This document shows positions 8,733 through 33,060 of a stretch of 64,000 bases of DNA, one piece after another. The position numbers and the translations under genes were made by a program. This DNA is from Pseudomonas phage PhiPA3, in the sequence record HQ630627.1. The stretch is one strand, 5' to 3'. The notes beneath the pieces are model-generated. The model made no database searches and was not told the DNA's origin. It saw only the letters and a program-made list of their open reading frames with translations. The number at the start of each line of letters is the position of its first letter. Position 1 is the stretch's first letter.

Positions 8733-8754
8733 CTATATTACAAATGTGATATTA
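8733..8754 (+). promoter_or_regulatory. early-promoter-like dyad motif CTATATTACAAATGTGATATTA
   Basis: One of four near-identical motifs. Each sits about 40 nt downstream of a terminator and 26-33 nt upstream of an ATG. It resembles the AT-rich TATATTAC-type early promoters of phiKZ-like phages, as I recall them. Confidence 0.45.
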
Positions 8755-8781
8755 GCCTAGTTAATCAACGGAGTAATCCCC

Positions 8782-8889
8782 ATGGGCATTGCTAAGTTCT
8801 GCTTTAAACTCGGTCTGGCAGTCGTGATCATTAACGCAGCCTGGTGGGCCGTTGATACCATCTTCGAAGAGGAAACCACAGATGTCTGA
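8782..8889 (+). CDS. 35-aa TM microprotein
   Basis: GGAG ribosome-binding site and the hydrophobic segment LGLAVVIINAAWWAV. Confidence 0.3.
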   Translation: MGIAKFCFKLGLAVVIINAAWWAVDTIFEEETTDV

Positions 8890-8986
8890 CTACATCAAGT
8901 TCAACCTGAAAGTAGTACTGGGCATAGTAGCCTGTTACTATGCTTTGAAAACCACCAACTTCATCGTAGAAGAAATCATCGGTTAA
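8882..8986 (+). CDS. 34-aa TM microprotein
   Basis: ATGTCTGA stop/start overlap with the upstream microprotein gene, and the hydrophobic segment VVLGIVACYYAL. Confidence 0.3.
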   Translation: MSDYIKFNLKVVLGIVACYYALKTTNFIVEEIIG

Positions 8987-8991
8987 GTGTC

Positions 8992-9321
8992 ATGAACTGG
9001 TACTTCAAATCAGTTCTGGCACTTACAGGGGTTATGACCGTTTTGGGTGCAGGCATAGGCCTTCTCGCCTGGCGACATATCTCTACGATCAACAAATTGT
9101 ATTCCCAAGGTTGGGAGTACCTCAACAAGATCCATGACCAACTTCTGAGTGATGGGTACTACCATCATTCGCACTGGCAACGCCGCAAGAGTCTCTTGTG
9201 GCAAGAAGCAGCAGCTGGAATCGAAGAGATTTTAGCTGCGTACCCCGCGAGCATAAAAGACCATGTTCGCGAACACCTACGCTACGATTCACGTCGGATC
9301 GTTAACTGTGATACTCACTGA
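8992..9321 (+). CDS. hypothetical membrane protein (109 aa)
   Basis: ORF with an N-terminal TM segment. Confidence 0.45.
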   Translation: MNWYFKSVLALTGVMTVLGAGIGLLAWRHISTINKLYSQGWEYLNKIHDQLLSDGYYHHSHWQRRKSLLWQEAAAGIEEILAAYPASIKDHVREHLRYDSRRIVNCDTH

Positions 9322-9336
9322 AAAGGAAACTGCACC

Positions 9337-9492
9337 ATGAAACAAGCTCTCATCATCGCTGGTATCGTTACCTCCATCGGCGCTGCTGCCTTCGCCGGCT
9401 ACAAGTACTTCACCGGCAACGACGCCGACTCGGCGGGCGACACCCCGGCAGCTCCCGAAGCCGCCACTGAAGAAACCCCCGCTACTGAATAA
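9337..9492 (+). CDS. 51-aa TM microprotein with acidic tail
   Basis: AAAAGGAAAC ribosome-binding site. The N-terminal segment ALIIAGIVTSIGAAAFAGY is hydrophobic. Confidence 0.35.
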   Translation: MKQALIIAGIVTSIGAAAFAGYKYFTGNDADSAGDTPAAPEAATEETPATE

Positions 9493-9535
9493 GTAGCGGT
9501 TCACCTTCCACACCATTTCAAGTAAGGAAAGCAAT

Positions 9536-9838
9536 ATGTTCGGTTCTCTCGTAAAAGGTGCTCTGCTGATGGTCGTCGGAGCGGCTGGTCTGACTGCCAT
9601 GATGGTGTGGTCGGATGACGCTATCTCGAATGAGCTCCTGCGTGAGTTCAACGATTACGTCAAGTCTCTACCCGAAGATCTCGTCGGTGAAGAGCGTAAC
9701 AAAACCATCCATAGCTATGTCGAGCGTCGCATGAAAGAAATCCGCAGCGCTCTCAGCATGGCTCGTAACCTGTGTGAATTGGAGGAAAAGGTACAAGCCT
9801 TCCTCCAGAAGAACATCACTCCGGTTCCGGCAGAGTAA
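9536..9838 (+). CDS. hypothetical protein (100 aa) with N-terminal TM
   Basis: ORF with a ribosome-binding site. Confidence 0.45.
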   Translation: MFGSLVKGALLMVVGAAGLTAMMVWSDDAISNELLREFNDYVKSLPEDLVGEERNKTIHSYVERRMKEIRSALSMARNLCELEEKVQAFLQKNITPVPAE

Positions 9839-9845
9839 CCCCTAG

Positions 9846-9866
9846 GGGGCCTTCGGGCCCCCATCT
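9846..9866 (+). terminator. hairpin gggggcc-ttcg-ggccccc
   Basis: GC stem with a UUCG loop. Confidence 0.55.
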
Positions 9867-9892
9867 CCTTTGTAATGTATCTTTTCTGAAGG

Positions 9893-9914
9893 CTATATTA
9901 CAAAAGTGATATTA
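9893..9914 (+). promoter_or_regulatory. early-promoter-like dyad motif CTATATTACAAAAGTGATATTA
   Basis: Second copy of the motif, about 30 nt after terminator 9846 and 25 nt before ATG 9939. Confidence 0.45.
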
Positions 9915-9938
9915 CCCAATTCAATCGAGGATTTAATC

Positions 9939-10091
9939 ATGAAAGCAATTGCCCTGGTATTCGTAGGTATGGTTCTTGGCGGCCTGTTCGTTAACGCTAA
10001 GTACGATACCCCCAAAGCATCTGAAGAGCAAGTTGTACTCGGTACCCGGATCGGTTCTCTGGGTCAAGAGATCTTGGTTGTTAAGAACTAA
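9939..10091 (+). CDS. 50-aa TM microprotein
   Basis: I preferred ATG 9939 over 9906, because the 9906 start overlaps the promoter motif. It has a GAGG ribosome-binding site and the hydrophobic segment IALVFVGMVLGGLFV. Confidence 0.35.
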   Translation: MKAIALVFVGMVLGGLFVNAKYDTPKASEEQVVLGTRIGSLGQEILVVKN

Positions 10092-10130
10092 GTAATACCC
10101 CCTTCAAATAAACAATAGGAAAATACAATC

Positions 10131-10487
10131 ATGGCTCGCTCCCTCTCTGACTACGTCGTAGAAGAAATCGTTTATCCGACCGTCATCGGTCTGTCTATCG
10201 CCGGCGTTCTGATCGGCATCAATGAGGCTGTCAAATGGTGGAACCGTCCCACCGATAAGGACATCGTCGAAGAATACTGTATCAAGATCGATGAGATCGT
10301 TCAGCGCCACAAGAACCGTGTCGTCGCTCGCGAGGGGGATCGCATCATCGCCGTCAACACCGCTTACCGTGCCCTGATGCTTCGCCTCGCCGTGGAATAC
10401 CAGGGTAACGAACTGGAAGAAGTTCGTAAGACCATCCGTGCACATTACGAAATGCGTGCGAAAGAAAACGGTTGGGAAATCAACTAA
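10131..10487 (+). CDS. hypothetical early protein (118 aa)
   Basis: ORF preceded by the AATAGGAAAA translation-initiation motif. Confidence 0.5.
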   Translation: MARSLSDYVVEEIVYPTVIGLSIAGVLIGINEAVKWWNRPTDKDIVEEYCIKIDEIVQRHKNRVVAREGDRIIAVNTAYRALMLRLAVEYQGNELEEVRKTIRAHYEMRAKENGWEIN

Positions 10488-10552
10488 GCGCGATGGGGTA
10501 GGCGAAAGCTTACCCCCTGTTATACCTTCAATTTTTAATAGGAATCTTCAAA

Positions 10553-10933
10553 ATGAAAACAGTCTCGATCGTGGCCATCACTATTTCAGCTGTAGTCGCT
10601 GTTGGTTTCACCGCAGCGGCTATCTATACCCACAACCGTAACGAAGCTCGCATCGAAAAACGCGATGCATTCATCGACAGCATTTGCGGCGATCTCGCCG
10701 AAGCAGTTGCTAAGTACAAGCGTACCGCTGACTACGACAAACTCGTGGACAGTCTGCGTGAAGACGGTCTCTCTCCGGAAGACCTCGTCAATCGCGTGCG
10801 CTTTGCTGTAGCCGCCAAACTGCTTCCGCGGTTCGAGAAGCGTTTGGAAAAGAACAAGGATGAATACTCCGAAGAAGACTTCGGTATCATCCTGTCCCGT
10901 CTCCACACCTTCACCAAGCGAGTTATCTACTAA
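10553..10933 (+). CDS. hypothetical early protein (126 aa), N-terminal TM
   Basis: ORF preceded by AATAGGAATC. Confidence 0.5.
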   Translation: MKTVSIVAITISAVVAVGFTAAAIYTHNRNEARIEKRDAFIDSICGDLAEAVAKYKRTADYDKLVDSLREDGLSPEDLVNRVRFAVAAKLLPRFEKRLEKNKDEYSEEDFGIILSRLHTFTKRVIY

Positions 10934-11115
10934 TGAAATACCTCACTCAAGCCCTCGTTGTAATCTTCCTCGGTGCCAGCGTTGCTGTGGGTAACGCTTA
11001 CGTCGATCTGACCAAGCCGGAAGGCAAAGTCAGTAAAGAAACCCAAGCACTCTGCGACAAGCGTGACCAGAAGTGTCAGCAGTTTGTGATCGTCTTCCAG
11101 GAGAAGTTCAAGTGA
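10933..11115 (+). CDS. hypothetical protein (60 aa), signal/TM N-terminus
   Basis: ORF with a TAATG overlap with the upstream gene. Confidence 0.4.
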   Translation: MKYLTQALVVIFLGASVAVGNAYVDLTKPEGKVSKETQALCDKRDQKCQQFVIVFQEKFK

Positions 11116-11531
11116 TCCAACAACCTTACCGTCGCACAGCGGCCGAGTTCTCCATCAATCAAGGAACTGAACAGAAACAAGCTGCCGGTTTCACCAGCGC
11201 CTATTATGTCTTCGCTGACATTAAAGGCGACACCATGCTGGACTGGATCGAATACCAGATGAACCGTCTGATGCCTCTGGAGGTCCGTAACCATAACCAC
11301 AGCTACAAGGACATGTTCTGGATGTTCCATGACCAGGGCTTGTTCAAAGAGCCGGTAAACGCTGAGTTCTTCTATCGGATCATCCCGATCCACAAGCGCC
11401 GTTTCCGCAAGCTGCTGCGCCGCGTAGCCGGCGCCTGTCGTATCAAGGGTGGCGGTTACAAGGGCGTGGATTGCATGGTGGTTCCTGATGCAGTGGTCGA
11501 CACCATGAACGCCTGGGTCAATGAAGGCTAA
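11112..11531 (+). CDS. hypothetical protein (139 aa)
   Basis: I preferred the GTG start at 11112, which has an AGGAG ribosome-binding site, over ATG 11073. Confidence 0.4.
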   Translation: MIQQPYRRTAAEFSINQGTEQKQAAGFTSAYYVFADIKGDTMLDWIEYQMNRLMPLEVRNHNHSYKDMFWMFHDQGLFKEPVNAEFFYRIIPIHKRRFRKLLRRVAGACRIKGGGYKGVDCMVVPDAVVDTMNAWVNEG

Positions 11532-11565
11532 ACGTCCGCAGATCTACCGAAGGAAATCCGTAACA

Positions 11566-11859
11566 ATGACCGATAAATACGAATCTCCGGTTAGCACACC
11601 GGATAAGCTTTACATCAACGGCTACAACGTCACCGCCCTGACGGACCTGATCGAACAAATACGCGATCACTTCGGGGATGAAACGTTCCTGGAACAGATC
11701 TCCATCGATACCGAGCAGGTTCAAGTCGCCGGTTGCAGCTGTTGCCCTGGTGGTGCTGTCTACAACACCTACTACGTTATCACCCGTGAGCCTGTGGGGG
11801 ATAACGTACGTAACTCGGCTACCATGCTGGGTGGTATCCTTCAGGAAACTGACGGATGA
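11566..11859 (+). CDS. hypothetical protein (97 aa)
   Basis: ATG 11566 with an AAGGAAAT ribosome-binding site, in frame with track ORF 11521. Confidence 0.4.
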   Translation: MTDKYESPVSTPDKLYINGYNVTALTDLIEQIRDHFGDETFLEQISIDTEQVQVAGCSCCPGGAVYNTYYVITREPVGDNVRNSATMLGGILQETDG

Positions 11860-12083
11860 GTTACCGTTTCCGTCAGATAACCTCGACAGAGGCACGTGAG
11901 CTCCCTAACGGTGAGTATGACACGTGCCCACTACATGGCCCTCAGGTGTACATGCCTGAGCGTCGTGTACGGGTGAAGAATGGTTCTGTGCGGTTACTGG
12001 CGTACATCGATGATGACATGCTGGCATTCAGTGCACCGTTCTTCTTTGAAGTCAACGTTTTAGTGGAGAAGCAAGATGGGTAA
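11856..12083 (+). CDS. hypothetical protein (75 aa)
   Basis: ORF with an ATGA overlap. Confidence 0.4.
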   Translation: MSYRFRQITSTEARELPNGEYDTCPLHGPQVYMPERRVRVKNGSVRLLAYIDDDMLAFSAPFFFEVNVLVEKQDG

Positions 12084-12243
12084 GAAATTATTCGACCATG
12101 TCCGCAGTCAATGGTTAATGGCCACCTGCTTCGCTGTAGCTGATTCGGTTCTGTATGGTGATGCTTTCGCACGGAATAGCATCAAAGAAGCAGAAGACAA
12201 CCTTCGGGAAACGGCGGCTAAGATCATTGCAGGTGACTACTGA
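12076..12243 (+). CDS. hypothetical protein (55 aa)
   Basis: Small ORF that fills a gap, with a TGATG overlap to the next gene. Confidence 0.3.
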   Translation: MGKKLFDHVRSQWLMATCFAVADSVLYGDAFARNSIKEAEDNLRETAAKIIAGDY

Positions 12244-12428
12244 TGGCTTCGCGTATTTCCAAAGGTAAACGTCGGTACCTGATGCAGTTGGTTAAGTCGG
12301 GTGCTATGCGTTATAAAAGTATCTGGCAGGCTGCTTGCGGTATGTACGGCCTCAATATGCATCTCGAAGGCACGTCAGAATCGCGTGAAGCCATCTACCG
12401 TCGATTCCTGGAAGAGGAAGAGCAATGA
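12243..12428 (+). CDS. hypothetical basic protein (61 aa)
   Basis: ORF. Confidence 0.4.
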   Translation: MASRISKGKRRYLMQLVKSGAMRYKSIWQAACGMYGLNMHLEGTSESREAIYRRFLEEEEQ

Positions 12429-12658
12429 GCCTCAACTACAGCGGCTACAGCGTTACCTTTAACGTTACGCACAACGGTGTCCAAAAAGCGTTCACTGGGT
12501 TCACTGAACCGACTGGTGATGCTGAGGAGGACAAGAAGATCGCTACTCGTAAAGCCATGGAGCAATTCATGGCCTCCGAGCAGTTCGGTCAGATGACCTA
12601 TGGCTTGATGGACGAGTTCAACATCAAGGTCACCACGCTGGTACACACCAGCATGTAA
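12425..12658 (+). CDS. hypothetical protein (77 aa)
   Basis: ORF with an ATGA overlap, followed by hairpin actcgtatc-N8-gatacgagt. Confidence 0.45.
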   Translation: MSLNYSGYSVTFNVTHNGVQKAFTGFTEPTGDAEEDKKIATRKAMEQFMASEQFGQMTYGLMDEFNIKVTTLVHTSM

Positions 12659-12725
12659 AGAGTAATATACGTGTACTCGTATCCTAAACAGATACGAGTG
12701 CATTATTTTATTCCGTGAGGTAGGT

Positions 12726-12962
12726 ATGTTTATTAATGTGATCGCTCAAATCCAGGGTCAGAGTAGAACGGTGGATGTAATCGTCAGTGAGCCTAATAGC
12801 CTCGTTGAACTATTGACGATTTATCAGAAGTCGGATAAGGTTAAAGCTTATCGGGTTATTCCACAAGACTGCCCACCAGTAAAGAACTTCTATACCGATT
12901 TCGGTTGGGGTAACGCGTATTTTGATAAGAACCAACCTGATAAATTTGATTGGACCGATTAA
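12726..12962 (+). CDS. hypothetical protein (78 aa)
   Basis: ORF with a GAGG ribosome-binding site. Confidence 0.4.
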   Translation: MFINVIAQIQGQSRTVDVIVSEPNSLVELLTIYQKSDKVKAYRVIPQDCPPVKNFYTDFGWGNAYFDKNQPDKFDWTD

Positions 12963-13006
12963 CATGTCTAAAGAGGAAGGGCTGACCTACGTCGTCCCGC
13001 CGTACG

Positions 13007-13240
13007 ATGAACTCTGACAAGCTACGGGGAATACTGGCTAACCACGGTATACTCCCTACACTGTTCGTTGAGAGTTCAGATATACGTATTGCCAACTTCC
13101 GGTTCCAACGGCATAAAACTCAGGTTCTCAAACCTGGTGGACCTGGTTATCGGAAATGGATTGACGTGGATTCACTGGACTGGGTAGAAGTCGAGTTCCA
13201 CCTCAACAAATTCCTCAAGGAGAATGGTCTCGATGGATGA
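13007..13240 (+). CDS. hypothetical protein (77 aa)
   Basis: ORF. Confidence 0.4.
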   Translation: MNSDKLRGILANHGILPTLFVESSDIRIANFRFQRHKTQVLKPGGPGYRKWIDVDSLDWVEVEFHLNKFLKENGLDG

Positions 13241-13688: not shown

Positions 13689-13696
13689 GTGCAACC

Positions 13697-13909
13697 ATGA
13701 TTGATAAAGAAGCGGTTTTCAAGACCGAGGAAGAAATCCTCATGAAAGGCGATCTCGTGATGTGCCGCGAGTATGGCCTGTCACCCAACGGCAATCCCCT
13801 CAATGGGGTCTGGGTGATCCGCAACCGCAAGACTGGTCAGTACATCGACCATGACCGCTACAGCAATGACCTCAAAGAGCGTCACGACTTCCACCCCAAC
13901 GTGAGTTAA
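13697..13909 (+). CDS. hypothetical protein (70 aa)
   Basis: ATG 13697, in frame with track ORF 13676. Confidence 0.4.
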   Translation: MIDKEAVFKTEEEILMKGDLVMCREYGLSPNGNPLNGVWVIRNRKTGQYIDHDRYSNDLKERHDFHPNVS

Positions 13910-13920
13910 AGGAGTAATAC

Positions 13921-14181: not shown

Positions 14182-14217
14182 CAACCGTCATTCAATTAGT
14201 AATAGGAAAATTTAATC

Positions 14218-15033: not shown

Positions 15034-15059
15034 TTCGTTGGTAACAACGCTTATACCCA

Positions 15060-20563: not shown

Positions 20564-22353
20564 CAGTAAGGTTCGTTACACCTTACCCGCGCCATTATGC
20601 GCAGCTCCAGGCTTTCCCTGGATGTCCAGACTATATCTTCACCCTCGGTTTCCCGATAGGGTGCTTCCCACTTCGAGTTCACTTGAACTCTACTCCCCAC
20701 TACGGGATAGTCGTTGAACCTTCTCCGTGCCTTTCGGTTTAGGAGCTTGGCTGCTGATTGTCCAATTTCTACACTTGTTAAACCTTCATAGACTCCTTTC
20801 GGGTCTATTGTGGTAGTAGAACTCTGAAGGAGTTTCCAGCAATTCAGGAAGTACTCGTAAAGCATTACGGCTTTACGGCCCTAAATAAGTAACCCTTAGT
20901 TTCCTTATTAGTGCTCAGATTTAATCGAATTGTTTTCTCGTTTAGACCGGTTAGACGAGCTGCTTCTTTAATAGAAGCAACCTCAGTTATAACACCGGTA
21001 TTCACGCAGGTAACCAGAATGGCTTTAGCTTGTATTGGCTTGTCGATATACGCCGAATTATCGTACTTATTCGAATCCGTGCGGATTATCCAACGCTTAG
21101 CGTAGATGTATTTCAATCCACGACTTAGGTCGACTTGCAACTCCGCTTTAGATCTCCCACAGTGATTCGCTATCTCCTGTAAAGTAGCGAAGACATGGAG
21201 AGTATTCGTTTCTAGATCACTTACGTAGTAAGGTCCAGACAGATTATTCCTACTGTAATGAATTTCACAGTGCGGAACATGCTCTTTAAAACGAATGACG
21301 AAGTTGTCGATGGTTTCGAACCGATATGGTATTCCATACGCTGTCGCAATCTGTTTTACACGATTGAACTTCCGGCTCTGTCCAGTCCGCGTATCGAAAA
21401 CCGTTATGGTGAATATCGATTTACCAACTTTAAAATCGTTTATATCAACTGTTTCGTAATGCCATGGTGTTAAGTCATCCATGGTTTTTATTTCATACCG
21501 CTTGCCCCAAAGATAACCAGGCAGTTTAGTTTGAAAACTTACAGTTGAGTTACCTACACCAATACCGAGACTTCTGTTCATCTCGCTAATGGACCTGTAC
21601 GCAGTAACTTCTCCAGTTAGGACATCCCTAACCTTCGTACCAATAGGTGTTCCATTAAGACCGACTTCCAATGCATGCTGTGCATTTTCCGAAGCATCAC
21701 ACCATTCTAGGTTAGATACGTCGTTATTGGTCTTAACTCCATCAATATGGTTAACGAGCGGTCTTTTTACGAAACATTCGTTTGGAACCCATGCCAAAGC
21801 TACTAACCGATGAAATTTTACGGTACGATTGCAATTTCGATCGGGTACTCTGATATAACACGTGTAGTAACCTTTATCATCGAGTTTCACATCCGTGATA
21901 ATCGAATTCGTTTTGGTATCTAGCACATGCCCATTGGTATCAATAGCGTATCTTGGGTAGTTTGGTATATGCCTGAACCCATCGCAGTAGTAAATCGGTT
22001 CTGCGAATGTCATTATCTTTCCGCACCTTATTCTCAAAAGCGTGTTGTCCACGTCTTTGAAAATTATTTTGTCAAGGTGTTGGGATAGATTGGGAATGTC
22101 TTCACATTCGTACCAAGCAAGTAGACTGAGCCACTCGACTGTGACTGTATACTTTTTACCAAATAGAACGATATTAACTAATCCATTCTCTTCCGGTAGG
22201 GAAACATGTTTCCCCAATCGGTCAAATATTTGACCGTTTAAATCAATTCGGTATTCTGAACTACCAGGAATCTTTTTAATCACAGCCACACCCCAAGTTA
22301 AAAAATCAACTATAGGATATCTGTAATTAAAGGTAGGTAATTTAAGGAGTGGT
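20564..22353 (-). mobile_element. group I intron (~1.79 kb) with embedded HNH homing endonuclease ORF
   Basis: The minus-strand core elements are P AATTGCTGGAAAC (~20848-20836), Q AATCAGCAGCC (~20759-20749), R GTTCAACGACTATC (20719-20706) and S GAAGATATAGTC (20640-20629). A candidate internal guide sequence ATAGTT pairs with the exon sequence AACTAT. A gtaagg-N9-ccttac hairpin sits just before the 3' splice site, which follows a G. Confidence 0.65.
20865..22289 (-). CDS. HNH homing endonuclease (474 aa) with C-terminal NUMOD/IENR-type DNA-binding helix-turn-helix
   Basis: NUMOD4-like N-terminus IKKIPGSSEYRIDLNGQIF. The HNH core is HRLVALAWVPN...VNHIDGVKTNNDVSNLEWCDASEN. The C-terminus reads IKEAARLTGLNEKTIRLNL. 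It starts with GTG 50 nt after the exon-1 stop. Confidence 0.85.
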   Translation of the reverse strand: MAVIKKIPGSSEYRIDLNGQIFDRLGKHVSLPEENGLVNIVLFGKKYTVTVEWLSLLAWYECEDIPNLSQHLDKIIFKDVDNTLLRIRCGKIMTFAEPIYYCDGFRHIPNYPRYAIDTNGHVLDTKTNSIITDVKLDDKGYYTCYIRVPDRNCNRTVKFHRLVALAWVPNECFVKRPLVNHIDGVKTNNDVSNLEWCDASENAQHALEVGLNGTPIGTKVRDVLTGEVTAYRSISEMNRSLGIGVGNSTVSFQTKLPGYLWGKRYEIKTMDDLTPWHYETVDINDFKVGKSIFTITVFDTRTGQSRKFNRVKQIATAYGIPYRFETIDNFVIRFKEHVPHCEIHYSRNNLSGPYYVSDLETNTLHVFATLQEIANHCGRSKAELQVDLSRGLKYIYAKRWIIRTDSNKYDNSAYIDKPIQAKAILVTCVNTGVITEVASIKEAARLTGLNEKTIRLNLSTNKETKGYLFRAVKP

Positions 22354-24265: not shown

Positions 24266-26509
24266 ATGAAACAACTCAAAGACCTGTTCAAGGTTAATGG
24301 TGATTCCAGCCGTACTACCTTTGGCCTGGAAGAATTCGTTGGTCACCTGACCAAAGAAGTAGACTTCGCTGACAGCATCTTCGACGCTGGCACTGGCCTG
24401 GTCAAGTCGATCGGTAACGAAGCTTTCGGTGAAAATGCTGAAGAGCAATCCGCTGCTTCTAGCCTCTACAAGCGCCTGCAAAGCATGGCCAGCAACTACG
24501 GCTTCGAAGCCTTCCAAGCTGACCCGAGTCTGAGCCAAGCTCAGATCCGCGAACAAATCCGTGTTACTGGCAACCAGCTCGCTGCCGGTACCCTCGCTGC
24601 CATCGCTTGCACCGACCAGACCGCTTACATCAAAGCTCTGCGTAAGGTCTCGGTTGAAAGCGTTTCCAACGACAAGAACGTCGTTAACGTTCAACATCGC
24701 TTCGACGGTCCTGCTGGTTCCCTGCAAGTCTTCGAAAACGGCGTTGGCCTGGAAAACTACAACGAGAAATCTCAGCGCGACTTCCGCGTTGTGACCGTTG
24801 GCTACAACCTGGCTGCTTCCCGTCAGGACGAGTTCGCTGAGCGCATCTACCCGACCACCGTTATCAACCCGATCGAGGGTGGCGTGGTTCAGGTTCTGCC
24901 GTACATCGCCGTGATGAAAGACGTTTATCACGCTGTATCGGGCCAGAAGCTTCAGAACGAAGAAGTCAACATGGTAGAAGCCTACCGTGATCCGTCCATC
25001 CTGGACGACGAGTGCACCGCTCTGATCCCGTCGATCGATCCGGCCGGCACCAACCTGAAGTTCTTCATCGACCCGACTCTGGTTGCTCCGACCACCGTCG
25101 TTAACGAACAGAACATGTCCGTCGAGACTGCTCCGCTGAAGCCGGGCATCAAGATCGATCTGATCGGTAACTCCAACGCTAGCCTGCTGATCAACAAAGG
25201 CATGCTGGACATTTCCGACACCATCGACCCCGCTGGTCGTCTGAAAGCTCTGTACGTTAAGTTCCAGGGCAAAGTGATCAAGTTCGCTGTGGATCGCCTG
25301 CCGCGTGCTGTGTTCCAACCGGATCTGGTTGGTGATACCCGTGGTGCCAAGATCGACTTCTGGTCTGACGACCTGACTGTTAGCGCCATCACCCGTACCG
25401 TTGACCAAACTCAAACCGCAGCAATGCAAGAGCTGGAACAGCGTAAGTGGGTTCTGCGTCTGAGCATGCAGTTCAGCGGTCACATCTCCACCAGCCGTGG
25501 CGACAGCCGCTTCACCGTTGGCGAAGTTTCTGTTGATCGCATCACCGACGAAGACCGTCGCAATGTTTCCCTGGAAACTGGCGCTGGTAAGACTCTGGTT
25601 GACAGCATCACTGATCTGGAGATCGTAGGTTTCGACCTGGATACTCGCTTCACCAACACCAACCGTCGTCAGCGTGGCCACCTGCTGCAAACTCGTGCCC
25701 TGCAATTCCGTCACCCGATCCCCATGCACGCTCCGGTTACTCTGCCGCTGAGCACCATGGACGAAGAAGGTCCGGGCGAAGTTGTGAAGGCACTGACCGT
25801 CAACACCAACATCCGTAACAGCAACAACGCTGTTAAACGTCTGCTGAACTACCTGGCTCAGCTGAAAGAAGTTACTGCCAATGGTTTCGACCGTCCGCAG
25901 TTCGGTGCTGTTGAAGGCGCTCTGTCGGCCGTAATGCGTCCGACCTATCGTTACAAAGAGCTGCACTTGCCCGACGTGATCGACACCCTGAAGTCGCAAG
26001 ACCGCTGGGAAGACGTCTGCTCGGCAATCCTGAACGCTGTTAAAGGTGAACTGTTCCCGGCTTACCGTGAATCGAACATCGAAGCTGCGTTCCGCGTGAT
26101 CTCGGGTAACCAAGACGAGCGTCCGATGTTCCTGTTCTGCTCGGACAAAGAGATCGCCAACTACCTGATGACCAAAGGTGATGACCGTACCCTCGGTGCT
26201 TACCTGGAATACGATCTGGTATCGACCAACAACGAACTGTTCGACAGCAAGCTGGTGGTGATCCCGACTCGTAAGAACCCGCAAGAGAACGATATCCTCT
26301 CCTTCGGTCAGTTCTTCTACGTTTCCACCGTCATCGCTGACCTGCCGATCACCCGTGGTGGTCAGCAAGTTACTCGCGAAATCGCGGCCATCCCGTTCAA
26401 CCTGCACGTGAACAACATTCCGTTCGCACTTGAGTTCAAGATCACTGGCTTCCAAGAAGTGATGGGCGAATCTCAGTGGAACAAGACTGTTGCTAGCCTG
26501 AAGCCTTGA
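24266..26509 (+). CDS. major capsid protein, phiKZ gp120-like (747 aa)
   Basis: It is the longest abundant-looking ORF in the head block. Its length is identical to the recalled length of phiKZ gp120 (747 aa). It has an AGGAAACAACAGAA ribosome-binding site and a strong terminator downstream. No motif-level proof is possible by eye. Confidence 0.55.
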   Translation: MKQLKDLFKVNGDSSRTTFGLEEFVGHLTKEVDFADSIFDAGTGLVKSIGNEAFGENAEEQSAASSLYKRLQSMASNYGFEAFQADPSLSQAQIREQIRVTGNQLAAGTLAAIACTDQTAYIKALRKVSVESVSNDKNVVNVQHRFDGPAGSLQVFENGVGLENYNEKSQRDFRVVTVGYNLAASRQDEFAERIYPTTVINPIEGGVVQVLPYIAVMKDVYHAVSGQKLQNEEVNMVEAYRDPSILDDECTALIPSIDPAGTNLKFFIDPTLVAPTTVVNEQNMSVETAPLKPGIKIDLIGNSNASLLINKGMLDISDTIDPAGRLKALYVKFQGKVIKFAVDRLPRAVFQPDLVGDTRGAKIDFWSDDLTVSAITRTVDQTQTAAMQELEQRKWVLRLSMQFSGHISTSRGDSRFTVGEVSVDRITDEDRRNVSLETGAGKTLVDSITDLEIVGFDLDTRFTNTNRRQRGHLLQTRALQFRHPIPMHAPVTLPLSTMDEEGPGEVVKALTVNTNIRNSNNAVKRLLNYLAQLKEVTANGFDRPQFGAVEGALSAVMRPTYRYKELHLPDVIDTLKSQDRWEDVCSAILNAVKGELFPAYRESNIEAAFRVISGNQDERPMFLFCSDKEIANYLMTKGDDRTLGAYLEYDLVSTNNELFDSKLVVIPTRKNPQENDILSFGQFFYVSTVIADLPITRGGQQVTREIAAIPFNLHVNNIPFALEFKITGFQEVMGESQWNKTVASLKP

Positions 26510-26622: not shown

Positions 26623-26644
26623 GCCCGCCCCGAAAGGAGCGGGC
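26623..26644 (+). terminator. hairpin gcccgcccc-gaaa-ggagcgggc followed by TTTATGCCG
   Basis: GC stem after the major capsid protein gene. Confidence 0.55.
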
Positions 26645-26680
26645 TTTATGCCGTCAAGGCCAGTGTAAAAAATCTCACAT

Positions 26681-26700
26681 CTATATTACGTTGGTGATAA
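26681..26700 (+). promoter_or_regulatory. early-promoter-like motif CTATATTACGTTGGTGATAA
   Basis: Third copy of the motif, 37 nt after the terminator and 33 nt before ATG 26733. Confidence 0.4.
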
Positions 26701-26732: not shown

Positions 26733-27266
26733 ATGGGCTTCTTTAGCCGATACGGTCAATGCGTAGAACGGGCTTTGCATGAGGCCCAGTGTAACCCAGG
26801 TGATATCATTATTAAATTACCTGAAACTGAAATGGAGGATGCCATTAAGAACCTGATAGACCAATCACAGAAAGAAACTACTGAGGCGTGTAATGGGATG
26901 CAAGCCCAAAAACCCCAACCTCAACAAGCACACAACCATCCACCGAAGGGTGGGTATATGCCCCCTAAAACAGATCCGTTTGAGTTGCAGATGATAGCTG
27001 CATTCGGCGGTCGTTTTCAAGAGGAGTACCCTCATGGAAAACAGCCAAAGCGCAGCCCCGGACAAAAAGTACGTGGAGCTGCGCGTGATGGGGAAGAGTA
27101 TCGGAACGTTCGAGGTCCGAGCAAAAAAGAAAAGAAATCCCAACGTCGAACCGCCAAAAGAAACTGCGAGTCCAACTCAGCAGTAACAAATAAAGGACGA
27201 GTTGTTGGGATGGTTCTGGAAGGGGTAGTATTCAATGGTGAGTATCAACCGTTCGAACGCCGCTAG
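26733..27266 (+). CDS. hypothetical protein (177 aa; extent uncertain, overlapping alternative frames)
   Basis: The N-terminal ~100 aa look protein-like. The C-terminal basic low-complexity part overlaps an alternative 50-aa ORF (27034..27186) and the start of the next gene. Confidence 0.35.
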   Translation: MGFFSRYGQCVERALHEAQCNPGDIIIKLPETEMEDAIKNLIDQSQKETTEACNGMQAQKPQPQQAHNHPPKGGYMPPKTDPFELQMIAAFGGRFQEEYPHGKQPKRSPGQKVRGAARDGEEYRNVRGPSKKEKKSQRRTAKRNCESNSAVTNKGRVVGMVLEGVVFNGEYQPFERR

Positions 27267-28275
27267 ACTGGCAGAGAACGCTAGTACTGATAGCCCATTT
27301 GACCAGAGTTATTTTAGTTATGGTCAGACTAATCCTAACCAAAGCTTCCGTTTCGGCGAAGGTGAGGTTGAACGTAAGGTGCGGTTTATCAATGAGTCGT
27401 TCCATGATCTTAGTATTATTGACGGAACTGGTATGACTCTAGATTTGCCCGCTTCGCGTACAGCCGGATCTCGCCTGGTTGTATGCGTTTCTTACCGATG
27501 GGGCCATCAGGTACAGTTTAATCCAGCCGCCATGCTGAAGCATGCTCCACAGGCAGATGAATTGTACGTTCGTAAAATCACCAGTCTAATCCGTAATACA
27601 GATAACAATAGCCCTAGAGAGCTGGATCTGTATTACGTGGTCGACCTGGGGAGTCTTGATAAGGATCCTTATGGGATCTGGATTGAGCCGTTAAACGTTC
27701 AGGTCGTTATGACCCGTTATTCCAAAACCACGACGTTCTTCACTCAGGATTGTTTCTTCAATCGGAATGATGAACTCTACGAGATGGAAGAACGCGTGTG
27801 GGCAACGACGGTTACTCTAGCTTACTTTGTGGATGACGCTAAGATTGTAGAGAAGGCATATGTGCCTATCGGATCGGACTTGCTCGAAGTCTCTCCAGTC
27901 TATCGTCCGGATGTTCCTCGTGGAATCTATATCAACCTTCGGGGAGATGTAAGTTTTGCGGCAAGCAAAAGTAATCGCCGTTGTCTGCACGTTAAACCAG
28001 AAGAGTTTCAAAAGTACGGCATTTATCGCACGTGCCGGGATTGGGAAGAAGCAGTGAAAGCCAGTGCGAAGGGGCTTAGTAAAGATGGCGTTAAGGCAAT
28101 CATGGATGTCTTCCAGGAAGTCCACGGAATCAAACCTGAGGAAGATAAACCGAAGGCTGCGAGTATCCGTGACATTGTGATCGTCGGGGAATACACGATT
28201 GGTAGTGTACTAGACTTCATGGGCGAATTGGCCAAAGCAGACTCCATACTCGAAAAGCTATTTAAGAAAAGGTAG
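27235..28275 (+). CDS. hypothetical protein (346 aa)
   Basis: Long ORF. Confidence 0.5.
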   Translation: MVSINRSNAARLAENASTDSPFDQSYFSYGQTNPNQSFRFGEGEVERKVRFINESFHDLSIIDGTGMTLDLPASRTAGSRLVVCVSYRWGHQVQFNPAAMLKHAPQADELYVRKITSLIRNTDNNSPRELDLYYVVDLGSLDKDPYGIWIEPLNVQVVMTRYSKTTTFFTQDCFFNRNDELYEMEERVWATTVTLAYFVDDAKIVEKAYVPIGSDLLEVSPVYRPDVPRGIYINLRGDVSFAASKSNRRCLHVKPEEFQKYGIYRTCRDWEEAVKASAKGLSKDGVKAIMDVFQEVHGIKPEEDKPKAASIRDIVIVGEYTIGSVLDFMGELAKADSILEKLFKKR

Positions 28276-28286
28276 GTAGGACCAAG

Positions 28287-29909
28287 ATGGATCCGTTTCT
28301 CAACCAGAGAATCAAAGAAAGGACCCCAGAGTTCAATAAGACCCTTGCCAACGGTCTTGCGATTGAGCACATGATGGGCCTCAATGAGGCTGGGATCAAC
28401 AACACCCGAGCGCTGATTGATAACCTGTTCCAGATCAACTCCGCGCTCTTTCCGGAGGGTTTTAAGTATCACGGTAACGTTGTTGTACGGGCTGAGAAAC
28501 ACTTCGAAGAGATCACACGGGAATACGGTTCGCGGCGCGTTGCCAACATCGCGCCATCGAATCTGTACATGATCGCTTTGAAGACCAGCTTTAAGGGCGA
28601 AGAACTCTTCGATCGCCACATGTTGATACCTTTCGTTGAACAAGGTGGTACGACTGTATTGAACGGGGCGCGTTACGGGATCGCCCCTGTTCTAACTGAT
28701 GTGGGTTACTCAGTTCTGAACAACAGCATCTTCATTCCGTTCCGGCGGGCGAAGTTGACATTCAAACAGAAAGACCACCATTATTTGTGCAACGGTGATT
28801 TGCAGATCATGTACGTGATCTGGTCACAGATCCACAACGAGATGTCGAAGCGAACCAAGCGAGATCTGGACAATCGCCAATACATCGAGTCGTGCCTGGC
28901 ACATTACTTCTTCTGTGAATTCGGTCTGATTGAGACCTTCAAACGTTGGGGTAATGCAGATCTGCAAATCGGGTATCTCAAGGATTTCCCTGAGAGCCAA
29001 TACCCACGTGACCAATGGTGCGTCTACGAGTCAGCGTTCCTGACGGGTAAACATCCCACTGGTGACATGGTTCTGGTTATCCCACGTCATCAGGAAACTG
29101 ATTTCGTGAAACGCTTGGTAGCTGGTTTCTGGTATGTGGTCGACACGTTCCCCAGTCGGTTCTATGAGCCGAGCTATCTGGATAACAAATCGATCTGGCG
29201 TATCATCCTCGGCTTGATGATCTTTGGTGACTTTGAACACCAGGGTAAACTGGCTGAGAACATTGATAACCATCTGGATAGTTTTAACAACTCACTGGAT
29301 GAGATGACCATCGAGGAGCTTCGCTCGGTGGATGTCAATGTCAGCACTATCTGGGAACTGTTGTATGCCATCATGACGCACTTGGCACATCACCTGTATG
29401 CCACGGATATCGATGAAACCAGTATGTACAACAAGCGGTTGAGCATCCTGCGTTACGTAATGGATGAGTTCAACTATGCCGTAACCATGTTTGGTTTTAC
29501 GTTCCAAGCCAGACGTGATAAGGATTGGACTGCCCAGGAAATCAACGATGCCCTGAAACGTTCGTTCAAACTCAATACCTGTATTCGCAAACTCACCAGC
29601 GAACACGGGGAGATGGAGACGATCAGTATGCCTGGCGACAATAAGGCTATTAAGATCACCTCTATCTTGGTACCGCAAGATCGTGCTAAGACCAGCAAGG
29701 CGCACAATAAGTCTCTTATTGGCGACTCTACCAGGCTGATCCACGCATCGATTGCGGAGGTCGGCCAATATAAGAACCAACCGAAGAACAACCCGGATGG
29801 TCGTGGCCGACTCAATCTCTTCGTAGGTGTACGATACGATGGGATGATTGAACGGCGCGATGACGATCGGGAATTATTGGACGCCACCCAAAAGCGTTTC
29901 GCCCGTTAA
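28287..29909 (+). CDS. hypothetical protein (540 aa)
   Basis: Long ORF with an AGGTAGGACCAAG ribosome-binding site. Confidence 0.55.
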   Translation: MDPFLNQRIKERTPEFNKTLANGLAIEHMMGLNEAGINNTRALIDNLFQINSALFPEGFKYHGNVVVRAEKHFEEITREYGSRRVANIAPSNLYMIALKTSFKGEELFDRHMLIPFVEQGGTTVLNGARYGIAPVLTDVGYSVLNNSIFIPFRRAKLTFKQKDHHYLCNGDLQIMYVIWSQIHNEMSKRTKRDLDNRQYIESCLAHYFFCEFGLIETFKRWGNADLQIGYLKDFPESQYPRDQWCVYESAFLTGKHPTGDMVLVIPRHQETDFVKRLVAGFWYVVDTFPSRFYEPSYLDNKSIWRIILGLMIFGDFEHQGKLAENIDNHLDSFNNSLDEMTIEELRSVDVNVSTIWELLYAIMTHLAHHLYATDIDETSMYNKRLSILRYVMDEFNYAVTMFGFTFQARRDKDWTAQEINDALKRSFKLNTCIRKLTSEHGEMETISMPGDNKAIKITSILVPQDRAKTSKAHNKSLIGDSTRLIHASIAEVGQYKNQPKNNPDGRGRLNLFVGVRYDGMIERRDDDRELLDATQKRFAR

Positions 29910-29934
29910 CAATTAAGCAATAGGAATACACCAG

Positions 29935-30720
29935 ATGCAAAACATGAACCTTCCCCATTTCTCCCAACTCGGTCTGCCGGTACCATTTCACGGCGTCGAC
30001 CAGAATACCTTCAATGGTAATCTGCCAGCAATGAATGATAAGGTTCCTCCGGTACAACTGTCGCAGTTGATGATGCAGAATCAACAGGCAGTTTATCAAG
30101 TCATTGCGAAGTTTCGCCTCAACGCGCAGATGGCTGTAAACAAAGGCTATCTGCAAATGTTCTGCTACAACCTGTTGTCGCAGAATGGTTTTCAGAATCC
30201 GGTGTATCAACAATGGGCTCAAACTGCGGTGGACTTCTTTGAGTTCCTCGTAGTGGGTAAAGGGTATCAGCCTCAACAAGCGATTGATATGGCTGCACAA
30301 CGTGTCATGGAAGCTTTCATTGGCATGGCGTTCGCTACCTATCAACAGGGTCTGTCGCAGCTGGTGGAACCCTCCCGTATCCCCAGTCTGCAAACAGCAG
30401 TCCAAATCTATCATCAGATCACTGCGGATATCCAACGTTTCAAATCGGGTGGTGGCATGGCAATGAACATGGGGGGTGCTCCCATGGGTGGTGTCAGCAT
30501 GGGTACTCAGCTCCCCCCGATCAGCACTGTCGGCGGCACTCCGATGGGTGGTCTTAGCAATTTCGCTACCAGCAGCGCCCCTGCGTTCAGCAGTCCGCTC
30601 CACTCCATGTCCAACAACACGCCCGCCGCAACCAACACCAATAACACTGGTAGTGCCTTCTACGATGATCCTCCCCCCAGCGAAACCTCTTCAACCTGTA
30701 GAGGAATGGGGTTCTGGTAA
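29935..30720 (+). CDS. hypothetical protein (261 aa) with Q/N/G/M-rich disordered C-terminus
   Basis: ORF preceded by AATAGGAATAC. It may continue by frameshift into the next ORF. Confidence 0.5.
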   Translation: MQNMNLPHFSQLGLPVPFHGVDQNTFNGNLPAMNDKVPPVQLSQLMMQNQQAVYQVIAKFRLNAQMAVNKGYLQMFCYNLLSQNGFQNPVYQQWAQTAVDFFEFLVVGKGYQPQQAIDMAAQRVMEAFIGMAFATYQQGLSQLVEPSRIPSLQTAVQIYHQITADIQRFKSGGGMAMNMGGAPMGGVSMGTQLPPISTVGGTPMGGLSNFATSSAPAFSSPLHSMSNNTPAATNTNNTGSAFYDDPPPSETSSTCRGMGFW

Positions 30721-30766
30721 TCAAGCAGGTAACAACCAATACGGCACTTATTCGGAGCCCGCCACA

Positions 30767-32026
30767 ATGCAAAATCAACCCCCGCAACAACCGAATGCAC
30801 CTGTGGTAGAAGAAACGAACCTCCCGATCCCAACGACTGTGAAGGAAGTTCAAATCGATCCGTCGTATTACCAGCCCGCAGGTTCCAAACCGAACTTCGA
30901 GCGTCCGTACGATCTGATCTGGAATCCGGGTGGTATCGAAATTCGTCCGGCCCATCAGACCGATTGGGAACGCACCGTGGGTGATGATACTCCGTACTCG
31001 GAGCTGCATGACCCAGCTAAGTGGTGCCTGTTCTATGTGAAGTTCCCTGATGGCGCCATCAAAGAAGCTTTCAAAGAATGGAATCCTCAGATGGAATACC
31101 TGCGTCACGAACTGAACGATGATCTGCGTCGTCAAACCTATCGTCCCTCCGGCGTGGTCTATGCGAACGATACTCCGGTATCCACCGTTGGTGGTAACCC
31201 CAACAACATGGCAGAAGTTGAGTCCATGGTAAAAGATGGTACCCTGCCGGAAACGGGCGCACGTTCTCCTCTGATCCTTGATCGGAAGCTCTATTTGGGA
31301 GCAACTGAACTGGAAGTGGAGGCCATGGTACGAGCTGATGTTCGTGAAATCCTGGAAGTGGAAGATGTTAATGCTGAACTGCCTGCTTATGAGTACACCA
31401 CTCTGAACATGCACAGCATGGATATTTCTGACGAGCTGTACAATGAACTCGTTGGTATCCTGTCTTCCACTGACATGATTGAGGTGGCTACTCGTCTGAA
31501 GGAACTGGTGCTGCGTGGTAGCCTGTCTATCCGCTACTTCCGTTTCCTGAATGAGCGCCTGACCAAGTGCATCAACGACTACATGGCTGATTCCATGTCC
31601 ATGTCTATCGATATCACTGATTTCTGCCAAGACATCGGTGAGCTGCTCGATTACATCGCCCAGAAGAAAGGTCAGCAGATGCTGAAAATTCTGAAGGATG
31701 GTGGCGCAGCCATTATCGGTAAAGCAGCTACTATGGTTGAAGTCGATGGTGATCGTGGTGTTGCTGATCAACTCGTTACTTTCCAAACGGGCTGGACTCT
31801 GGAACAACTGTCCACTCTGAACATCCTGACTGAGAAAGCGGTGCTGGTTTCTGGCGGTACTCATCCGACCGTTCTGGAAATCCTGCGTGGTATGATCAGT
31901 CGTTCTACTCAACAAGAACGTCTGCTCACCCATCGTCTGCGCATTGCTACTCTGGATGGCGTGTATCTGGAAGTGATCAAAGGTCAGCTGGCTGAACGTG
32001 CTGTTCTGCTCAAGCGCCTGAAGTAA
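30767..32026 (+). CDS. hypothetical protein (419 aa; or C-terminal part of a frameshifted fusion with 29935..30720)
   Basis: ATG 30767 with a GGAG ribosome-binding site. The track ORF in the same frame is open from 30476. Confidence 0.5.
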   Translation: MQNQPPQQPNAPVVEETNLPIPTTVKEVQIDPSYYQPAGSKPNFERPYDLIWNPGGIEIRPAHQTDWERTVGDDTPYSELHDPAKWCLFYVKFPDGAIKEAFKEWNPQMEYLRHELNDDLRRQTYRPSGVVYANDTPVSTVGGNPNNMAEVESMVKDGTLPETGARSPLILDRKLYLGATELEVEAMVRADVREILEVEDVNAELPAYEYTTLNMHSMDISDELYNELVGILSSTDMIEVATRLKELVLRGSLSIRYFRFLNERLTKCINDYMADSMSMSIDITDFCQDIGELLDYIAQKKGQQMLKILKDGGAAIIGKAATMVEVDGDRGVADQLVTFQTGWTLEQLSTLNILTEKAVLVSGGTHPTVLEILRGMISRSTQQERLLTHRLRIATLDGVYLEVIKGQLAERAVLLKRLK

Positions 32027-32049
32027 TCCGCAATATTGCATCTGGTATT

Positions 32050-32078
32050 GCCCCACCTTCGGGTGGGGCTTCTTTTCG
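32050..32078 (+). terminator. hairpin gccccacc-ttcg-ggtggggc + TTCTTTTCG
   Basis: GC stem with a UUCG loop. Confidence 0.65.
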
Positions 32079-32090
32079 TCTGGGGGTTAA

Positions 32091-32600
32091 ATGAAACTGA
32101 TCAAACAGGAAGACGGTACGTTTAAGGCGATCGTCGAATGGGAAGTATTGAGACAACACATGGTGGAATCCCTGCGGTCCGATCCGTTCATTCCAGATGA
32201 ACTGAAAGACGCCATCGTGGAAAGGAATCGTCAGAAGAACTTGCTGACGATCTTCGAGAATTCCAGTTTGCGTAAACGAATTGATCTACAGTACATGCTC
32301 GCGGAGTTCAATACACCTGATCTCCAGCACTATTACAAAGCATACGAGCGAGCAGCTCGTCTGATGTACACGGATATCAATCGTGGCTGTGCCGCGGTGA
32401 CTGGTTATGAAATCATTAATAACAGTGCCCTGATGCTAGGTCCGCGTTTAGAGTTCAACCTGTCTGGGGCAGGCTTCATGGCTCGTGACATGTATCGTGT
32501 TTACGACCTGGGTGTTGAACTTAACCTTGATTTCCGCTTCATCCTCAACCAAGACTTCGATCTCTTCGACATCTATGGCGTTGACATACGCTTGGGCTAA
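32091..32600 (+). CDS. hypothetical protein (169 aa)
   Basis: ORF with a GGGGG ribosome-binding site. Confidence 0.5.
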   Translation: MKLIKQEDGTFKAIVEWEVLRQHMVESLRSDPFIPDELKDAIVERNRQKNLLTIFENSSLRKRIDLQYMLAEFNTPDLQHYYKAYERAARLMYTDINRGCAAVTGYEIINNSALMLGPRLEFNLSGAGFMARDMYRVYDLGVELNLDFRFILNQDFDLFDIYGVDIRLG

Positions 32601-32614
32601 CTAGGGTAATAACA

Positions 32615-33025
32615 ATGCTACAAACCGATTATGGAGTAAAAACGGAGTTTGTTACACTCGGTCGTTTACCCAAATGGATGCTTGATGCCGAGGGGATGGG
32701 TAAGGTAACTGATCAAATTCAAGCGGGTAAACTGCTATGTGAATTCGGCCATCCTGATATCGCAGGTTTGGATGACCATTCGATTGTTAAACGTTGCCGT
32801 GATATCAATTACAATCGCGTGTGTGCTCAGACCATCGGTATCACGCCGGTGTATGTGAATGCAACCTTGCAGGGATATAACGTCTCCGTACAGCCATGTG
32901 GTCCCATGCACTCTCTTTTGGAGACGGGGAATTATCGTCTGGGTGTTCGTGGGTTAAAACGAGAAGACGGAGAACTCGTGGAATTGATTACGTTCGACGT
33001 TTTACCGGTAAAGAATCGTAATTAA
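32615..33025 (+). CDS. hypothetical protein (136 aa)
   Basis: ORF. Confidence 0.5.
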   Translation: MLQTDYGVKTEFVTLGRLPKWMLDAEGMGKVTDQIQAGKLLCEFGHPDIAGLDDHSIVKRCRDINYNRVCAQTIGITPVYVNATLQGYNVSVQPCGPMHSLLETGNYRLGVRGLKREDGELVELITFDVLPVKNRN

Positions 33026-33038
33026 ACCGGTTTAAAGC

Positions 33039-33060
33039 CTACATTACAAATGAGATGTAG
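33039..33060 (+). promoter_or_regulatory. early-promoter-like motif CTACATTACAAATGAGATGTAG embedded in inverted repeat gcctacat...atgtaggc
   Basis: Fourth copy of the motif, 26 nt before ATG 33086. Confidence 0.4.

Follow-up and report, generated by a model that had tools for sequence, protein, structure and literature searches.

The 64-kb stretch of the Pseudomonas phage PhiPA3 genome analyzed here (record HQ630627.1, referred to as the window) carries repeated copies of an AT-rich motif built around the octamer TATATTAC, and these copies are very likely promoters of the phiKZ-type early class, with the virion RNA polymerase as their expected user. The early promoters of phiKZ itself were reportedly described by Ceyssens et al. 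in 2014. A preliminary description of the window had listed four copies, and its coordinates proved exact for all four when the sequence was read directly. The window contains five, with cores starting at 7735, 8734, 9894, 26682, and 33040, all on the + strand. The copy that had been missed occupies 7735-7742 with the core TATATCAC (sequence at the site, cccTATATCACagatgGGaat), and its predicted start lies 30 nucleotides (nt) from the ATG of the open reading frame (ORF) at 7779. The sequence architecture of the sites, their statistical excess, their strand and position relative to genes, their orthologous conservation, and the identity of the genes downstream were all observed. The comparison with the early-promoter consensus of phiKZ-like phages made in the preliminary description is borne out by the upstream blocks and the invariant TG shared with phiKZ and by the conserved orthologous positions. 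The five sites, with the predicted length of the 5' untranslated region (5'UTR), are as follows.

7715..7755, + strand: site 7735, core TATATCAC at 7735-7742, predicted start G at 7749, matrix score 19.6-22.3 bits
8714..8754, + strand: copy 1, core TATATTAC at 8734-8741, predicted start G at 8748, 5'UTR of 34 nt, matrix score 48-54 bits
9874..9914, + strand: copy 2, core at 9894-9901, predicted start G at 9908, 5'UTR of 31 nt, matrix score 20.7 bits
26662..26702, + strand: copy 3, core at 26682-26689, predicted start G at 26696, 5'UTR of 37 nt to the ATG at 26733, matrix score 19.6 bits
33020..33060, + strand: copy 4, core TACATTAC at 33040-33047, predicted start G at 33054, 5'UTR of 41 nt, matrix score 16-23 bits

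Statistical weight and layout of the sites

The bare octamer carried little statistical weight, since the 8-mer TATATTAC was found 4 times in the window versus 1.48 expected and 7 of 100 shuffled sequences reached 4; the count of the bare 9-mer was likewise not significant. The word counts were replaced by a 38-nt weight matrix, which was trained on ten phiKZ sites only and was hence independent of the window. This matrix gave exactly five matches of at least 19 bits, all on the + strand, with scores of 48.2 bits at 8734, 23.1 at 33040, 20.7 at 9894, 19.6 at 26682, and 19.6 at 7735. The best remaining score in the window was 9.4 bits, and 300 dinucleotide-preserving shuffles produced a mean of 0.007 matches at the same threshold, with a maximum of one per shuffle. 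All five matches lie just upstream of gene starts. An unbiased repeat search grouped copies 1, 2, and 4 into one direct-repeat family (D1, 55 nt), the largest that it returned for the region.

The probability that the copies are chance occurrences of an AT-rich word is next to nil. Such an explanation could draw on the unremarkable 8-mer count and on the chance-like copies of the octamer at 12662 (- strand) and 62822, but it is already refuted by the five matches of the extended matrix versus 0.007 expected and by the common strand, the gene-proximal position, and the conservation in relatives of all five sites. At 12662-12703, the exact TATATTAC on the - strand adjoins a 13-bp terminator-like hairpin (12671-12703), has no promoter blocks, scores below 3 bits, and is probably due to chance; the near-copy at 62822 is located inside a gene and also looks like chance. 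A divergent promoter was considered for the 23-nt segment 9857-9879, which is an inverted match to copy 4 (repeat pair I3), and was rejected at a - strand matrix score of 7.3. This inverted match is within the range of other chance inverted pairs and is not conserved in Pseudomonas phage PS119XW.

Alignment of the sites revealed a layout common to phiKZ and the window, comprising ATTnAAA, TTTAAA, TATATTAC, five variable bases, and TG. Within phiKZ bases 1-50,000, all seven exact occurrences of TATATTAC were intergenic, on the + strand, and 42-80 nt before gene starts. One of them precedes PHIKZ054, and gene 54 has the early promoter P54E, which is used in vitro (PMC4666361), as well as a primary transcription start site with the early motif according to differential RNA sequencing (dRNA-seq) (PMC8244752). 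The phiKZ early promoters were refined using dRNA-seq (PMC8244752) and ONT-cappable-seq (PMC10914365), and the early motif was characterized as an "extended -10 box plus T-rich motif upstream of -19" (PMC8244752). All polymerase-encoding jumbo phages have an AT-rich element of around 10 nt centered near -10 (PMC7598289).

A logo was derived from 34 aligned sites of eight phages. The invariant or near-invariant positions were A-34, T-32, AAA at -30 to -28, TTTAAA at -23 to -18, TATATTAC at -14 to -7, T-1, G+1, and A+2. The start G was present in 34 of the 34 sites, a few of which had been picked with a pattern requiring G; it was followed by A in 26 of the 34 and in all five window sites. G at -2 occurred in 21 of the 34, and there was no information past +7. 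This profile fits the early-promoter descriptions published for phiKZ (PMC8244752), 201phi2-1 (PMC11512511), and AR9 (PMC5312081). A C-rich element at +8 to +12 of the 5'UTRs was considered and rejected, being without information content across the 34 sites.

The five window sites fit this layout to different degrees. The octamer is exact in copies 1-3 and has one mismatch each in copy 4 (TACATTAC) and site 7735 (TATATCAC). The -20 and -30 blocks are clear at 7735, 8734, and 33040 (good in copy 4, with AATTAAACcggTTTAAAG), belong to an A-rich subtype at 26682 (upstream part ...AAAAAAtctcacATC), and are degenerate at 9894. The predicted 5'UTRs of site 7735 and copies 1-4 measure 30, 34, 31, 37, and 41 nt, and each ends with a Shine-Dalgarno sequence and an ATG; the 5'UTRs of phiKZ are mostly 31-40 nt long (PMC8244752). 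The distance of 26-33 nt between motif and ATG given in the preliminary description did not hold, as the gaps from the end of the motif to the ATG are 27, 24, 32, and 34 nt in copies 1-4.

Two apparent subtypes of the upstream part were seen across the sites. The form ATTCAAAC..TTTAAACAG occurs in phiKZ P005, P006, P10.1, P102.1, and P105 and in window copy 1, and the A-rich form AAAAAA..TTTAAGATC occurs in phiKZ P031, P036, P054, and P121, in window copy 3 (26662-26681), and in all orthologs of copy 3. Three sites, all with TATATCAC cores, have G in place of T at -1 (window 7735, PS119XW 7467, and Pseudomonas phage Phabio 30991).

A promoter of this type would comprise around 41 bp, with ATTnAAA near -34 to -28, TTTAAA near -23 to -18, and the octamer TATATTAC at -14 to -7, followed by five variable bases, (G)TG, and an A with a short AT-rich stretch. 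The octamer variants TATATCAC and TACATTAC would be tolerated, and transcription would start at the invariant G. If the phage behaves like phiKZ, 201phi2-1, and AR9, a virion multisubunit RNA polymerase would read the sites right after DNA injection. Its transcripts would cover the runs of small genes that follow, the gp121-gp124 operon, from which the gp123 subunit of the second, non-virion polymerase would come, and the gp125-like gene.

Recognition by the host sigma-70 polymerase, with TATATT serving as the -10 box, is highly improbable as an alternative. TATATT does resemble TATAAT, and one sigma-70 match overlaps copy 2 (TTGTAA-18-TATATT, 9/12). However, sigma-70 matches are not enriched in the region (19 vs. 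23.7 expected), and a search for a -35 and a -10 box separated by 16-18 nt yielded a candidate -35 at copy 2 only. The conserved AC at -8/-7, TG at -1/+1, TTTAAA, and ATTnAAA are not sigma-70 features, and infection by phiKZ does not depend on the host RNA polymerase (PMC4666361, PMC7598289).

Orthologous positions and downstream genes

Megablast and tblastn searches with the window matched only phiKZ-like Pseudomonas jumbo phages. The nearest relatives belong to Pawinskivirus (PS119XW, PA1C, and HPP-Temi), with around 81% nucleotide identity in the capsid region, and the gene order of the window is syntenic with phiKZ gp97-gp146. The intergenic DNA is more diverged: blastn at a distant setting with 32091-33766 gave no matches, and tblastn was used instead. 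The gp125-like protein shares 51% amino acid identity with its closest homolog, and a search of IMG/VR with this protein found no relatives of the locus. An IMG/VR scan with TATATTACNNNNGTGATAT gave more than 118 matches, which were mostly unrelated, and only two were contigs longer than 300 kb with a phiKZ-like upstream context. These uncultivated jumbo-phage contigs of 317 kb (L024, 3744-3829) and 325 kb (L060, 4337-4422) contain ATTCAAA..TTTAAAAG..TATATTAC-N4-GTGATAT, so that the GTGATAT start region is not peculiar to the window lineage. A full-text search of the literature for TATATTAC returned nothing relevant.

Positions in the relatives are given as coordinates within the compared locus (L001 for PS119XW, L003 for phiKZ, L004 for 201phi2-1, L005 for Psa21, and L127 for Viktualia). 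Despite diverged surroundings, all five sites were found at orthologous positions in PS119XW, at 7467, 8898, 10060, 24309, and 30605, and most of them recur in 201phi2-1, Psa21, Phabio, or phiKZ, with four in 201phi2-1. The TATATCAC core recurs at orthologous sites in PS119XW, Phabio, and Psa21. Site 7735 corresponds to PS119XW 7467 (TATATCAC), phiKZ 6875 before PHIKZ102.1, and 201phi2-1 6578. The orthologs of copy 1 (PS119XW 8898, phiKZ 8063 before PHIKZ105, 201phi2-1 7388, and Psa21 2350) all follow the macro-domain gene. Copy 2 corresponds to PS119XW 10060, and no positional ortholog of it was found in phiKZ. Directly after the capsid gene, copy 3 has orthologs in phiKZ (20657, before PHIKZ121), PS119XW (24309), 201phi2-1 (24453, TATATCAT), Psa21 (24188), and Phabio (24855), all sharing the A-rich upstream subtype. 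Orthologs of copy 4, always with the core TATATCAC, precede the gp125 homolog in PS119XW (30605), HPP-Temi, and Phabio (30991). The site lies one gene upstream in 201phi2-1 (30196) and Viktualia (965), and phiKZ, D6, and RVTF4 do not have it.

At 201phi2-1 30196-30216 and Viktualia 965-985, the core lies 10 nt before the annotated ATG (TATATTAC-AGAGG/AAAGG-TG-TAT-ATG), which places the predicted start G 4 nt ahead of the start codon. The mRNA would then be almost leaderless, unless the start codon is mis-annotated.

The genes and terminators next to the sites are listed below.

7779..7919, + strand: first gene after site 7735, 46 amino acids, PHROG 34982 (E = 7.5e-5)
8168-8650, downstream of the ORF at 7779: macro-domain gene, macro/phosphatase PHROG 335 (E = 1.3e-40)
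8663..8687, + strand: intrinsic terminator of the phiKZ type, CCCCACC-taac-GGGTGGGG followed by ATTATG, 52 nt upstream of copy 1
8782..8889, + strand: first gene after copy 1, 35 amino acids, ATG at 8782, GGAG at 8770-8773
9845..9862, + strand: GC hairpin terminator, GGGGGCC-ttcg-GGCCCCC, 31 nt before copy 2
9939..10091, + strand: first gene after copy 2, 50 amino acids (MKAIAL...), ATG at 9939, homologous to the start of PS119XW gp119
24266-26509: major capsid protein gene
26623..26649, + strand: terminator that follows the major capsid gene, with a GC stem followed by TTTAT, 37 nt upstream of copy 3
26733..32026, + strand: gp121-gp124 homologs after copy 3, PHROGs 15024 and 15010, syntenic with phiKZ and PS119XW
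33095..33766, + strand: gp125-like gene after copy 4, 223 amino acids, PHROG 14839 (E = 6.9e-94), tblastn matches to PHIKZ125 and homologs

Site 7735, which overlaps the 3' end of the gp102-like ORF 7313-7768, and copies 1 and 2 head runs of small + strand genes, and the gene at 9939 opens a long run that extends to around 18.45 kb. The terminator at 8663..8687 matches the form known from phiKZ, in which a stem is followed by TTAT (PMC10914365). In the preliminary description, a GC-hairpin terminator was placed 35-45 nt upstream of every copy. Such hairpins do precede copies 1-3, with spacings of 52, 31, and 37 nt that depart from this range, and there is none upstream of copy 4. The downstream gene start given as 26733 was right, and the one given as 33086 has to be moved to the ATG at 33095, which is preceded by AAGGA at 33083-33087 and agrees with the start of the PS119XW homolog.

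The location of copies 3 and 4 downstream of the major capsid gene had been taken to mean that early-type starts are embedded in the structural module. The location stands, but the genes served are not structural. Copy 3 heads homologs of gp121-gp124. Among them, the 540-amino-acid protein encoded at 28287-29909 corresponds to PHIKZ123, with a match to chain E of the non-virion polymerase structure PDB 7OGP at E = 6e-256, and early genes encode all subunits of the phiKZ non-virion RNA polymerase (PMC4666361). The same promoter is present in phiKZ between gp120 and gp121. Since copy 3 stands before the gp123 homolog and phiKZ has a promoter at the same place, an early promoter after the capsid gene is the expected, ancestral arrangement. 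It is a conserved and already known arrangement, and at least six genera have the promoter in this position right behind the major capsid gene.

Several points weigh against reading all five sites as early promoters of the virion polymerase. Copy 2 has weak -20 and -30 blocks, and copy 4 has a departing core (C at -12), no phiKZ counterpart, and a position within a stable inverted repeat. The start nucleotide, the early timing, and the polymerase using the sites are assigned to PhiPA3 by analogy with its relatives. No homologs of the virion polymerase subunits (phiKZ gp80, gp149, gp178, and gp180) were found in the 64-kb window, whose end lies close to the gp146-148 homologs; PhiPA3 would be expected to encode them as a member of the family. 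Finally, ONT-cappable-seq of 201phi2-1 gave only six early promoters, with a late promoter nearest gp203 and the nearest early motif around 5.5 kb upstream (PMC11512511). The copy 3 ortholog was not among the promoters reported for 201phi2-1 in that study. This ortholog, at 24453-24467 (around 132,452 in the record), has the core TATATCAT, scores 26 bits, and lies 50 nt before gp201 and around 1.6 kb upstream of the non-virion polymerase gene gp203, which suggests that the TATATCAT/TATATCAC variant was overlooked in the published 201phi2-1 motif scans.

Two further observations concern genes of the window. A group I catalytic intron was detected at 20607-20900 on the - strand in the 3' part of a DnaB-like helicase gene (Rfam RF00028, full-length model, 83.1 bits, E = 1.3e-19). 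The upstream ORF of this helicase (20865-22289, - strand) encodes 474 amino acids, and the PS119XW helicase is an uninterrupted gene of 512 amino acids. The gp124 homolog at 29935-32026 (+ strand) consists of two overlapping ORFs in different frames with a break near 30668-30673, which jointly span PHROG 15010 from end to end (profile positions 4-251 and 252-712). It is a single gene in phiKZ and PS119XW, and the split may reflect a frameshift, programmed recoding, or an error of sequencing. A search of the window for tRNA genes gave none.

Motif symmetry and the inverted repeat at copy 4

The two halves of the motif had been described as near-inverted repeats that may form a hairpin or bind a dimer. 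The near-inversion is present at the sequence level in copies 1-4 and absent from the fifth copy at 7735. The 22-nt "dyad" coincides with promoter positions -15 to +7, and its second half covers -2 to +5, including the predicted start G. Its significance was evaluated using 32 sites that had not been selected for the dyad; the two IMG/VR contigs were left out since they had been selected on it. No covariation was found across the 32 sites, with 58.4% of the cells paired versus 58.0% after shuffling of the 3' letters, and 166 of 500 shuffles were as good. The lone compensatory G-C cell was that of copy 4 itself. The consensus paired better in the dyad register (58.4%) than when slid by 1-3 nt (35-48%). 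The symmetry thus belongs to the consensus and is not kept up from site to site. The DNA hairpins of site 7735 and copies 1-3 had energies of -0.2 to -1.6 kcal/mol with z values of +0.75 to -0.78, no better than shuffled sequences. The hairpin or dimer interpretation is thus not supported for the family, and we interpret the dyad as a by-product of the AT-alternating core and of the (G)TGA-AT-rich start region that comes after it.

An element acting through two-fold symmetry, as the operator of a dimeric protein or as an N4-like hairpin or cruciform recognized by the polymerase, appears quite improbable. In its favor are the consensus pairing just described, the ability of copies 1 and 2 to pair over 7 bp (ATATTAC with GTGATAT, including one G-T), and the significantly stable hairpins of copy 4 and its PS119XW ortholog, in which the base departing from the core (C at -12 in window copy 4, C at -9 in PS119XW) makes a G-C pair. 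Besides the missing covariation and the negligible hairpin energies at four of the five window sites, this interpretation is contradicted by the absence of the dyad from site 7735, from the PS119XW sites p0 and p3, and from most phiKZ sites. Moreover, the right arm falls on the conserved (G)TG-A start region, the sequence past the start G is merely AT-rich, with complementarity in another register in Psa21 and 201phi2-1, and the polymerase of the phiKZ-like family is a multisubunit enzyme unrelated to that of N4.

Copy 4 differs from the other sites in this respect, as it is the only window site with a significantly stable repeat.

33029..33068, no strand: inverted repeat unique to copy 4, with a 9-bp perfect stem formed by 33036-33044 and 33055-33063

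The repeat spans the promoter core and the predicted start, and the RNA stem gains GGUU/AACC. The DNA fold has an energy of -7.8 kcal/mol (z = -5.8; 0 of 200 shuffles as good), and the RNA fold reaches -17.8 kcal/mol (z = -3.4). The PS119XW ortholog (TATATCAC-AGAG-GTGATATA) is a perfect 8-bp palindrome with -5.0 kcal/mol (z = -5.0), and the HPP-Temi ortholog is a perfect 8-bp palindrome as well. The stem of copy 4 does not look like an intrinsic terminator, since AACCCAATCTAATG follows it and there is no T-run or TTAT tail.

It is possible, although unlikely, that copy 4 alone is a dual-function element, in which the early promoter lies inside a selected stem-loop acting on read-through from gp121-gp124 or inside the site of a promoter-specific regulator. 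The stem-loop might serve as a terminator, an attenuator, or a 3'-end stabilizer or processing site, with the same DNA re-initiating transcription for the gp125-like gene. Such a composite would agree with a repeat far stabler than chance in both DNA and RNA, with the perfect palindromes of the PS119XW and HPP-Temi orthologs, and with the finding that the substitution weakening the core is the one strengthening the stem in both the window phage and Pawinskivirus. In addition, the window and Pawinskivirus junctions lack the usual upstream terminator, unlike those of copies 1-3, and a terminator but no palindrome is present at the 201phi2-1 and Viktualia orthologs. On the other hand, the missing T-run or TTAT tail sets the stem apart from the intrinsic terminators of phiKZ-like phages (PMC10914365), the Phabio ortholog has no stable hairpin, and site 7735 also lacks a terminator yet has no hairpin. 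The feature is furthermore confined to two lineages, in which it may be shared by descent.

Known promoter systems and significance

The window sites are closest to the early promoters of phiKZ, for example P54E and the sites upstream of 005, 006, 102.1, 105, and 121. Both have the octamer TATATTAC, the TTTAAA and ATTnAAA blocks, the TG 5 nt past the octamer, and the same orientation and distance to genes, and the sites at 7735, 8734, and 26682 match in genomic position those that precede 102.1, 105, and 121 in phiKZ. Unlike phiKZ, the window lineage favors G at -2 together with ATAT at +2 to +5, a preference that gives rise to the apparent dyad, and it uses the cores TATATCAC and TACATTAC; window copies 2 and 4 are without a phiKZ counterpart.

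In 201phi2-1, an AT-rich motif around 10 bp before the start and the -10, -20, and -30 regions are conserved, as is -2, which is variable in phiKZ and fits the GTG of the window (PMC11512511). Sites are also shared in the gp124-gp125 interval and behind both the macro-domain gene and the capsid gene. Differences are that 201phi2-1 reads AATTAA or TATAT past the start G instead of ATATTA and that its copy 3 ortholog has the core TATATCAT, which was not reported in PMC11512511.

The Bacillus jumbo phage AR9 has the early motif AAATATATATTAT-(6N)-G, in which an AT-alternating -10-like element and six bases precede a G that is the start (PMC5312081). Its virion multisubunit polymerase transcribes without new protein synthesis (PMC5312081), as would be expected for the window sites too. 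The last base of the AR9 element is T rather than C, and AR9 has uracil-containing DNA and a distant host and lineage. The promoters of N4 serve a polymerase that is co-injected with the DNA and contain an inverted repeat (PMC4496689), and the window sites would be used by a polymerase in a comparable way. However, N4 needs a stable extruded hairpin and has a single-subunit enzyme, whereas the window hairpins are unstable and show no covariation, and the enzyme family is multisubunit.

The finding holds but is an ordinary one, in that a known phiKZ-type promoter was identified in a relative, and knowledge of jumbo-phage transcription is unchanged by it. It provides a usable early-promoter map for this PhiPA3 stretch with five predicted early starts, one of which should switch on the gene for a subunit of the second viral RNA polymerase.

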